From: a virus
Taxonomy: Duplodnaviria; Heunggongvirae; Uroviricota; Caudoviricetes
Reading direction: 5' to 3' (one strand)
DNA length: 19,746 nucleotides
IMG/VR virus record: IMGVR_UViG_2541047849_000002
The notes below the pieces were generated by a model that saw only the letters and a program-made list of their open reading frames with translations, had not been told where the DNA came from and made no database searches. Position numbers and translations under genes: made by a program. Shown one piece after another: positions 17,795 through 18,544 of the stretch (positions within the stretch are counted from its first letter, which is position 1; the number at the start of each line of letters is the position of its first letter).

Positions 17795-18544
17795 ATGGAT
17801 TATGTTTGCTCCGTAGTTTTCATCTGTCAATCATTTGATTTAATTATAAACAGGAGAGTTATCTAGTTCAAAAAAAATTCATTGTTTATTGTAAGCGACA
17901 AAATTAGAAGGGAGTTACCAGTATGCCCCTCTAAACTAAGAATTGTTGATATAGATAAGAAAACATGTTTATCCTTTTTTATCGACGTGAATAATGAGCT
18001 GCCTGGCAAATTTACTCTTGATAAGAATGGCTATATTGCTGAAGAGGAACCTCCATTATCGCTTGTTTTTTCTCTGTTTGAAGGGATTAAAATAGCAGAC
18101 TCACACTCCCTTTGGTTAAAAGAAAGACTATGTATATCCTTACTTGCCATGTTCAAAAAACGCGAAAGTGTAAATTCATTTATACTAACAAATATAAATA
18201 CATTTACCTGTAAAATTACTGGAATAATCAGTTTTAATATTGAGCGGCAATGGCATTTAAAAGATATTGCGGAATTGATTTATACGAGTGAAAGTTTAAT
18301 AAAAAAAAGATTAAGGGATGAAGGAACGTCATTTACTGAAATATTGAGAGATACTAGGATGAGGTATGCAAAAAAACTCATAACTTCAAACTCTTATTCT
18401 ATCAATGTCGTAGCCCAGAAATGTGGCTATAACAGTACTTCATATTTCATATGTGCATTTAAAGATTATTATGGTGTCACGCCATCTCATTATTTTGAGA
18501 AAATAATCGGCGTCACAGATGGAATAAACAAAACAATTGACTGA
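17795..18544 (+). pseudogene. appY: AraC-family regulator AppY reading frame (249 codons) interrupted by an in-frame TAG at codon 24 (17864-17866)
   Basis: ATG at 17795 gives MDYVCSVVFICQSFDLIINRRVI-stop, then [17 protein letters not shown]...GINKTID in the same frame. The K-12 protein as I recall it has Ser at that position. The ORF track's 220-aa ORF starts from a TTG at 17882. Confidence 0.7.

Follow-up and report, generated by a model that had tools for sequence, protein, structure and literature searches.

A premature amber codon in appY of a DLP12-type prophage from a small Escherichia coli clade and the probable loss of AppY

AppY, its prophage setting and the interrupted copy

Escherichia coli K-12 carries appY (b0564) in its DLP12 prophage, between tail-fibre remnants and the convergently oriented ompT. 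The product activates hya and appCBA, with direct activation of gadE, gadY and nhaR, and it also stabilises RpoS and lowers motility (PMC10057817). In Rns, a regulator of comparable layout, the N-terminal domain is a six-strand cupin-like fold, and the residues that touch its ligand include His20, near the start of the chain (PMC8329261). The DNA analysed here, IMG/VR record IMGVR_UViG_2541047849_000002 (19,746 nt in total; below called the window), contains a copy of appY at 17795..18544 (+ strand; 249 codons plus TGA) that occupies the same position as in K-12 and has the same start codon, Shine-Dalgarno (SD) sequence and stop codon, whereas its codon 24 (17864..17866, + strand) is the amber TAG instead of TCG and the full-length protein is not encoded. 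A base-by-base alignment gave 749 of 750 nt in common with K-12 MG1655 (b0564, 583681-584430), B REL606 and E. coli C, the sole coding difference being A for C at 17865, which converts Ser24 into a stop followed by a T. The initial annotation, made from the letters alone, had read the frame from ATG 17795 as a 249-codon appY with Ser at codon 24 in K-12; its length, the serine and the gene identity were all borne out by the alignment. Judged by near-identity over the whole length, the allele is a known gene altered by a point mutation, a chance pattern of open reading frames being excluded. The uninterrupted 249-codon frame is missing, and because of the TAG at codon 24 the copy was filed as an appY null allele or pseudogene and not as a functional member. 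Our literature search found no paper describing an amber (nonsense) allele of appY.

The window is a DLP12-type defective lambdoid prophage: tail-fibre remnants, a convergent ompT and intD next to argU were all found, the neighbours being taken from K-12, REL606 and B-JRPT-4119. The gene order starts with intD (1-1164, - strand), which adjoins the tRNA-Arg gene argU in the genome identical to the window over 1-13907, and continues through O/P/ren replication remnants, emrE and ybcK, rusA and quuD, a porin, essD-rrrD-rzpD, iss/bor, a Nu1-tail-fibre fusion ORF and tail-fibre pieces to appY and ompT (18793..19746, - strand). Several of these genes showed features of their own. A 300-aa ORF at 1559-2461 (+) with a phage replication protein O domain, named "replication protein, frameshifted" in B-JRPT-4119, is another decayed prophage gene. 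The nmpC/ompC-like porin (9288-10370, - strand; 360 aa; Pfam Porin_1, 1.9e-151) is intact in the window and split by IS1 in REL606; its K-12 counterpart is interrupted by IS5. An 808-aa ORF at 13397-15823 (+) combines a complete Nu1 domain in residues 1-164 (3.7e-100) with subsequent tail-fibre sequence, and appears to have arisen by a deletion that fused the two and eliminated all of the head/tail morphogenesis genes; at the same site REL606 retains Nu1 as a gene of its own, followed up by a tail-tip pseudogene and a gene for a tail fibre. The ompT gene encodes Ile25 and Phe38 (window positions 19674 and 19635), both just behind the signal peptide, near the N-terminus of the mature protein; the corresponding residues of K-12 and REL606 are Leu25 and Leu38. 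The prophage is a mosaic: its left 13.9 kb (1-13907) is 100% identical to B-JRPT-4119 from Sweden, which beyond 13907 has an ISAs1-associated rearrangement and lacks the right arm, and the right arm of the window (13908-19746) is like CP142677/AP027520-type prophages except for three clade SNPs described below. None of the complete RefSeq genomes covers more than 88% of the window.

The start of appY is preceded by the SD-like AGGTG (17786..17790, + strand), located 4 nt upstream of ATG 17795 and pairing with the 16S 3' end at -3.7 kcal/mol. A database search with AppY returned a narrow family of 14 clusters, and ten homologues at 44-67% identity all aligned from Met1, with Cys5 invariant and V4, S6, C11, F14, L16, S24 and N28 nearly invariant; the NCBIfam YdeO profile likewise aligned AppY residue 1 to its first position. 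This conservation indicates that the annotated start at ATG 17795 is the real one and lies upstream of the amber. A reference AppY starting downstream of the stop, which the initial annotation had named as an outcome that would undo its reading, is rejected by the same homologues, which share Met1 and a conserved N-terminus including Ser24.

The C-terminal part holds the double helix-turn-helix (HTH) typical of the AraC/XylS family (residues 159-235; 18269..18499, + strand), recognised by Pfam HTH_18 (4.3e-16, 59.4 bits against a cut-off of 33.6) and HTH_AraC (1.4e-11, 44.6 bits against a cut-off of 26.6) in a run on the reference AppY of full length, whose HTH region agrees with that of the window residue for residue; the DNA-binding domain of GadX (3mkl) matched AppY at 3.8e-23. 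An AlphaFold2 model built on the family alignment (mean pLDDT 89.3, pTM 0.82) placed the helical DNA-binding domain from about residue 137 and six strands at 3-10, 14-18, 21-25, 29-33, 48-54 and 80-83, so residues 1-33 hold four of the six strands of the Rns/ToxT-like N-terminal domain. The best full-length Foldseek matches of the model were CsvR, Rns and ToxT (E about 1e-13), in agreement with the sequence search. All three (6XIU, 9GFP and 3GBG for Rns, CsvR and ToxT) share with AppY a two-domain layout, with six strands in the N-terminal domain and seven helices in the DNA-binding one, albeit at an identity of only 17-24%. AppY itself is not known to bind a ligand, and the comparison serves only to judge the loss of its residues 1-29.

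Distribution of the amber and of other appY lesions

The amber allele was searched for with a 55-mer centred on 17865 by megablast, which needs an exact 28-mer seed, so that a central mismatch at this position blocks any match. The TAG version matched 0 of 5426 complete RefSeq E. coli genomes, and the wild-type control with C matched 831 of them, 819 exactly. An exact-pattern scan of JGI/ENA metagenome contigs gave no TAG allele against 34 wild-type contigs, and the GTDB species representatives (36-mer; degenerate 23-mer) gave none against three. The closest relatives outside the clade, CP142677 and AP027520, were found through the OmpT of the window; they differed at 5-6 positions in about 4 kb and had C at 17865. 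The OmpT look-up missed the amber carriers because the I25/F38 allele is common, being indexed in 1152 blocks, and extends well beyond the amber clade; the genomes it returned had wild-type or IS1-inserted appY.

A column-wise comparison of 15700-19746 with about 60 loci left only three bases private to the window: 16223, 17494 and 17865. The first (+ strand; G, A elsewhere) causes D38G in a 234-aa protein with a tail-fibre domain (16111-16815), and it was only through an exact look-up of this private protein variant, present on 16 contigs, that the clade was found. All nine of these contigs that reach appY carry the haplotype 16223 G / 17494 C / 17865 A together with a normal A8 tract. They derive from seven NCBI assemblies (GCA_976942325.1, GCA_020350185.1, GCA_000459575.1, GCA_029848365.1, GCA_029848235.1, GCA_029420735.1 and GCA_013605495.1) and two Logan runs (SRR6491240 and ERR15500062) of different projects. 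One of them, KE701198.1 (GCA_000459575.1), equals the window exactly over 12111-19746, and the carriers vary among themselves at 19484 (G/A), at 13231 (T/G) and in an IS1 or deletion structure left of 14914. The second marker, 17494 (+ strand; T to C, with T in 61 of 61 loci outside the clade), falls within AT-rich leader/promoter sequence, 301 nt before the appY ATG, and is invariably linked to the amber; when 17150-18800 was scanned for promoters and terminators, promoter-like sites were fewer than in shuffled sequence, and none coincided with 17494. The comparison with appY of related strains, which the initial annotation had proposed, returned C at 17865 in 62 of 62 loci outside the clade and A in all nine within it.

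The concordance of nine assemblies with linked SNPs argues for an inherited amber and not a read error, and on this comparison it is a genuine, derived and rare allele of one small E. coli clade. A sense codon at 17864-17866, which would have overturned the initial annotation, was found in none of the nine independently assembled contigs. That 17865 is a sequencing or assembly error with C as the true base, a reading that could appeal to a single-base difference absent from the 831 appY-bearing complete RefSeq genomes, is rejected as practically negligible, given the same A in nine contigs from nine different assemblies or runs, its constant linkage to two other clade-specific SNPs and its position outside any homopolymer. 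Apart from the amber, the appY of the clade does not differ from the functional K-12 sequence and is free of secondary decay, which suggests that the mutation is probably recent; the undecayed gene would fit a recent null and a continued use through suppression or restart equally. Gene callers in the clade assemblies gave either a 220-aa ORF or nothing at appY.

The gene itself was present in 837 of the 5426 complete genomes (15%), nearly always at 99% identity or above. AppY is an accessory and dispensable protein, since only these genomes carry its gene and lesions occur elsewhere as well. Six bases downstream of the amber lies an A8 homopolymer (codons 26-28; 17870..17877, + strand), wild-type in the window and an independent frameshift site in other genomes: A7 was found in 8 and A9 in 3 of the 831 complete genomes, and one of each among 37 metagenome/GTDB loci. 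Three of the A7 genomes are K-12 laboratory strains (JW5437-1, K-12 and DH5alpha), and some of the A7/A9 calls may be long-read homopolymer errors, likely so in the K-12 laboratory assemblies, which bears on any reading of these counts as phase variation. The 220-aa ORF is annotated on 431 contigs, many of them explained by the A7/A9 frameshifts, and a 23-bp deletion yields the same ORF; a look-up of the 220-aa product did not lead to the clade, the ten matches listed being A7, A9 or the 23-bp deletion and none of them amber. The deletion, in appY codons ~10-17, was seen in CP040664.1 (GCA_005954605.1), which also has a cluster of A/T to C substitutions around the A8 tract (GGAGCG..., ACAAAAAATCC); this odd pattern may stem from poor assembly quality or from mutagenesis of the strain. 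Complete genomes with an IS1 element at the appY 3' end numbered at least 29 and were for the most part ETEC (O6:H16, TW10598 and others; NZ_CP029981.1); the gene is annotated there as a 246-aa AppY with an altered C-terminus and, to judge from this annotation, may not be inactivated.

Termination and possible restart or suppression at codon 24

In all probability the window carries a nonsense (null) allele, specific to one lineage, of the gene for AppY, the AraC/XylS-type activator of a DLP12-type cryptic prophage, and the "natural regulatory knockout" of the initial annotation is its best-supported reading, with the TAG confirmed and a conserved start upstream of it. A single C to A transversion at 17865 would have occurred in the ancestor of the clade and been inherited since. 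Ribosomes starting at ATG 17795 would terminate after 23 residues, and full-length AppY would not be made apart from trace read-through; a restart product, if any, would miss half of the N-terminal beta-sheet domain and be made poorly. The neighbouring genes should be unaffected, because appY is monocistronic and ompT convergent.

The initial annotation had also considered translation restarting at TTG 17882, codon 30, which opens the longest remaining ORF (17882..18544, + strand; 220 aa). A restart there, giving an AppY without residues 1-29 and with some regulatory activity, appears improbable. The codon lies 15 nt downstream of the TAG, is the sole in-frame ATG, GTG or TTG within 60 nt, and its ORF is open to the native stop; an in-frame start is thus within scanning range. 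It has, however, no SD-like sequence, the best anti-SD duplex before it being +1.0 kcal/mol against -3.7 at the native start, and the nearest GGAG is 26 nt upstream; moreover, TTG is a weak initiator. It would also face competition from an out-of-frame ATG at 17923, the only one with an SD before it in the roughly 60 nt that follow the stop; AAGGGAG, eight bases upstream of this ATG, and its ORF of three codons (ATG CCC CTC TAA) together occupy 17908..17934 (+ strand). According to the part of PMC5972666 that summarises Adhin & van Duin 1990, post-termination ribosomes in bacteria scan over 40 nt to either side, a radius that includes the TTG, and restart at the first start codon with an SD-like sequence before it. 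This description fits the SD-preceded ATG 17923, which would lead into the three-codon ORF and leave AppY unrescued, and the latter ATG would be the more likely sink than the TTG for any scanning ribosome.

The fate of such a product can be judged from the model. Starting at codon 30, it would keep the HTH domain and lack about half of the N-terminal sheet: strands 3-10, 14-18 and 21-25 are lost, and the chain begins at the edge of strand 29-33. The earlier description of a slightly shortened protein that keeps the AraC-type domain therefore holds for the domain, residues 159-235 being retained, but not for the slight shortening, with three of six N-domain strands gone that are conserved in all homologues. 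The absence of decay in downstream appY is in favor of such a product, and isolated C-terminal domains of some AraC-family proteins keep partial activity, so that it need not be wholly dead. [quoted passage not shown]

Little credence is given to a broader version, according to which appY has stayed otherwise perfect in the clade because AppY is still made at a low level through a suppressor, near-cognate read-through or an SD-independent restart at TTG 17882. The amber and the A8 tract together would then let mutations in the first 30 codons turn a costly, pleiotropic prophage regulator on, off or down.

Selection for the loss of AppY would be a gloss on the null allele: the amber would be one of several convergent inactivations favored by the cost of the protein in some niches. 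The independent lesions (amber, A7, A9 and the 23-bp deletion) do lie close together, all within the first 30 codons, the allele has outlasted some diversification of the clade, K-12 AppY represses motility and rewires the acid, RpoS and biofilm programmes, and its overproduction is strongly pleiotropic (PMC10057817). Such selection nevertheless seems very doubtful: only 11 of 831 complete genomes have A7 or A9, some of them likely homopolymer errors, the IS1 insertion of ETEC with its annotated 246-aa AppY is not clearly inactivating, and the pattern is that of the neutral decay expected of a cryptic-prophage gene with an A8 tract.

The suppressor-dependent allele, also raised in the initial annotation, is hardly credible; the clade would carry an amber-suppressor tRNA of the supD/E/F type and insert Ser, Gln or Tyr at codon 24 to complete AppY, as the otherwise intact ORF would allow. 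ARAGORN found no tRNA gene within the window, and our literature search on amber suppressors in natural isolates returned nothing relevant. Strong amber suppressors are costly, since several hundred E. coli genes terminate with TAG. The TAG-T context of codon 24 is also unfavorable for suppression, TAG followed by T being, reportedly from work of Poole et al. in 1995, an efficient terminator, and with a residue as conserved as the nearly invariant Ser24, insertion of Gln or Tyr may fail to restore function.

Expected consequences and comparison with known alleles and restart systems

With the null allele as the preferred reading, AppY-dependent activation would be lost in the clade, the inputs expected to disappear being those to hya, appCBA, gadE/gadY and nhaR, the stabilisation of RpoS and the FlhDC-mediated control of motility. 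The loss of function and its phenotype are deduced here from the interrupted frame. Isolates of the clade should accordingly be scored as appY-null when the induction of hydrogenase-1, cytochrome bd-II and acid phosphatase is predicted, and the same scoring bears on AR2 acid resistance, RpoS stabilisation and motility. The three-SNP haplotype (16223, 17494, 17865) is a handy marker for recognising them. The deposited 220-aa "AraC family transcriptional regulator" entries arising from the amber or from A7/A9 are truncation artefacts and represent no distinct protein. A strain-specific nonsense mutation in an accessory gene of a cryptic prophage is commonplace and no new kind of feature, and it matters little beyond strain annotation; if the loss of AppY were selected, it would be a minor case of a domesticated prophage regulator being cut back by its host.

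The other appY alleles (A7/A9, the 23-bp deletion and IS1) are likewise strain- or lineage-specific changes in the same accessory gene, and the A7/A9 and deletion alleles leave the 220-aa ORF from TTG 17882 just as the amber does; in contrast to these slippage, deletion and insertion events, the lesion in the window is a base substitution to a stop, with a small clade of its own. In the restart paradigms of lacI and T4 rIIB an early amber is followed by a close in-frame start, as in appY, but compared to these paradigms and to the scanning model the candidate appY start lacks an SD-like element. The restart products of lacI lose the DNA-binding headpiece, while the candidate product of appY would keep its DNA-binding domain and be damaged in the regulatory one.
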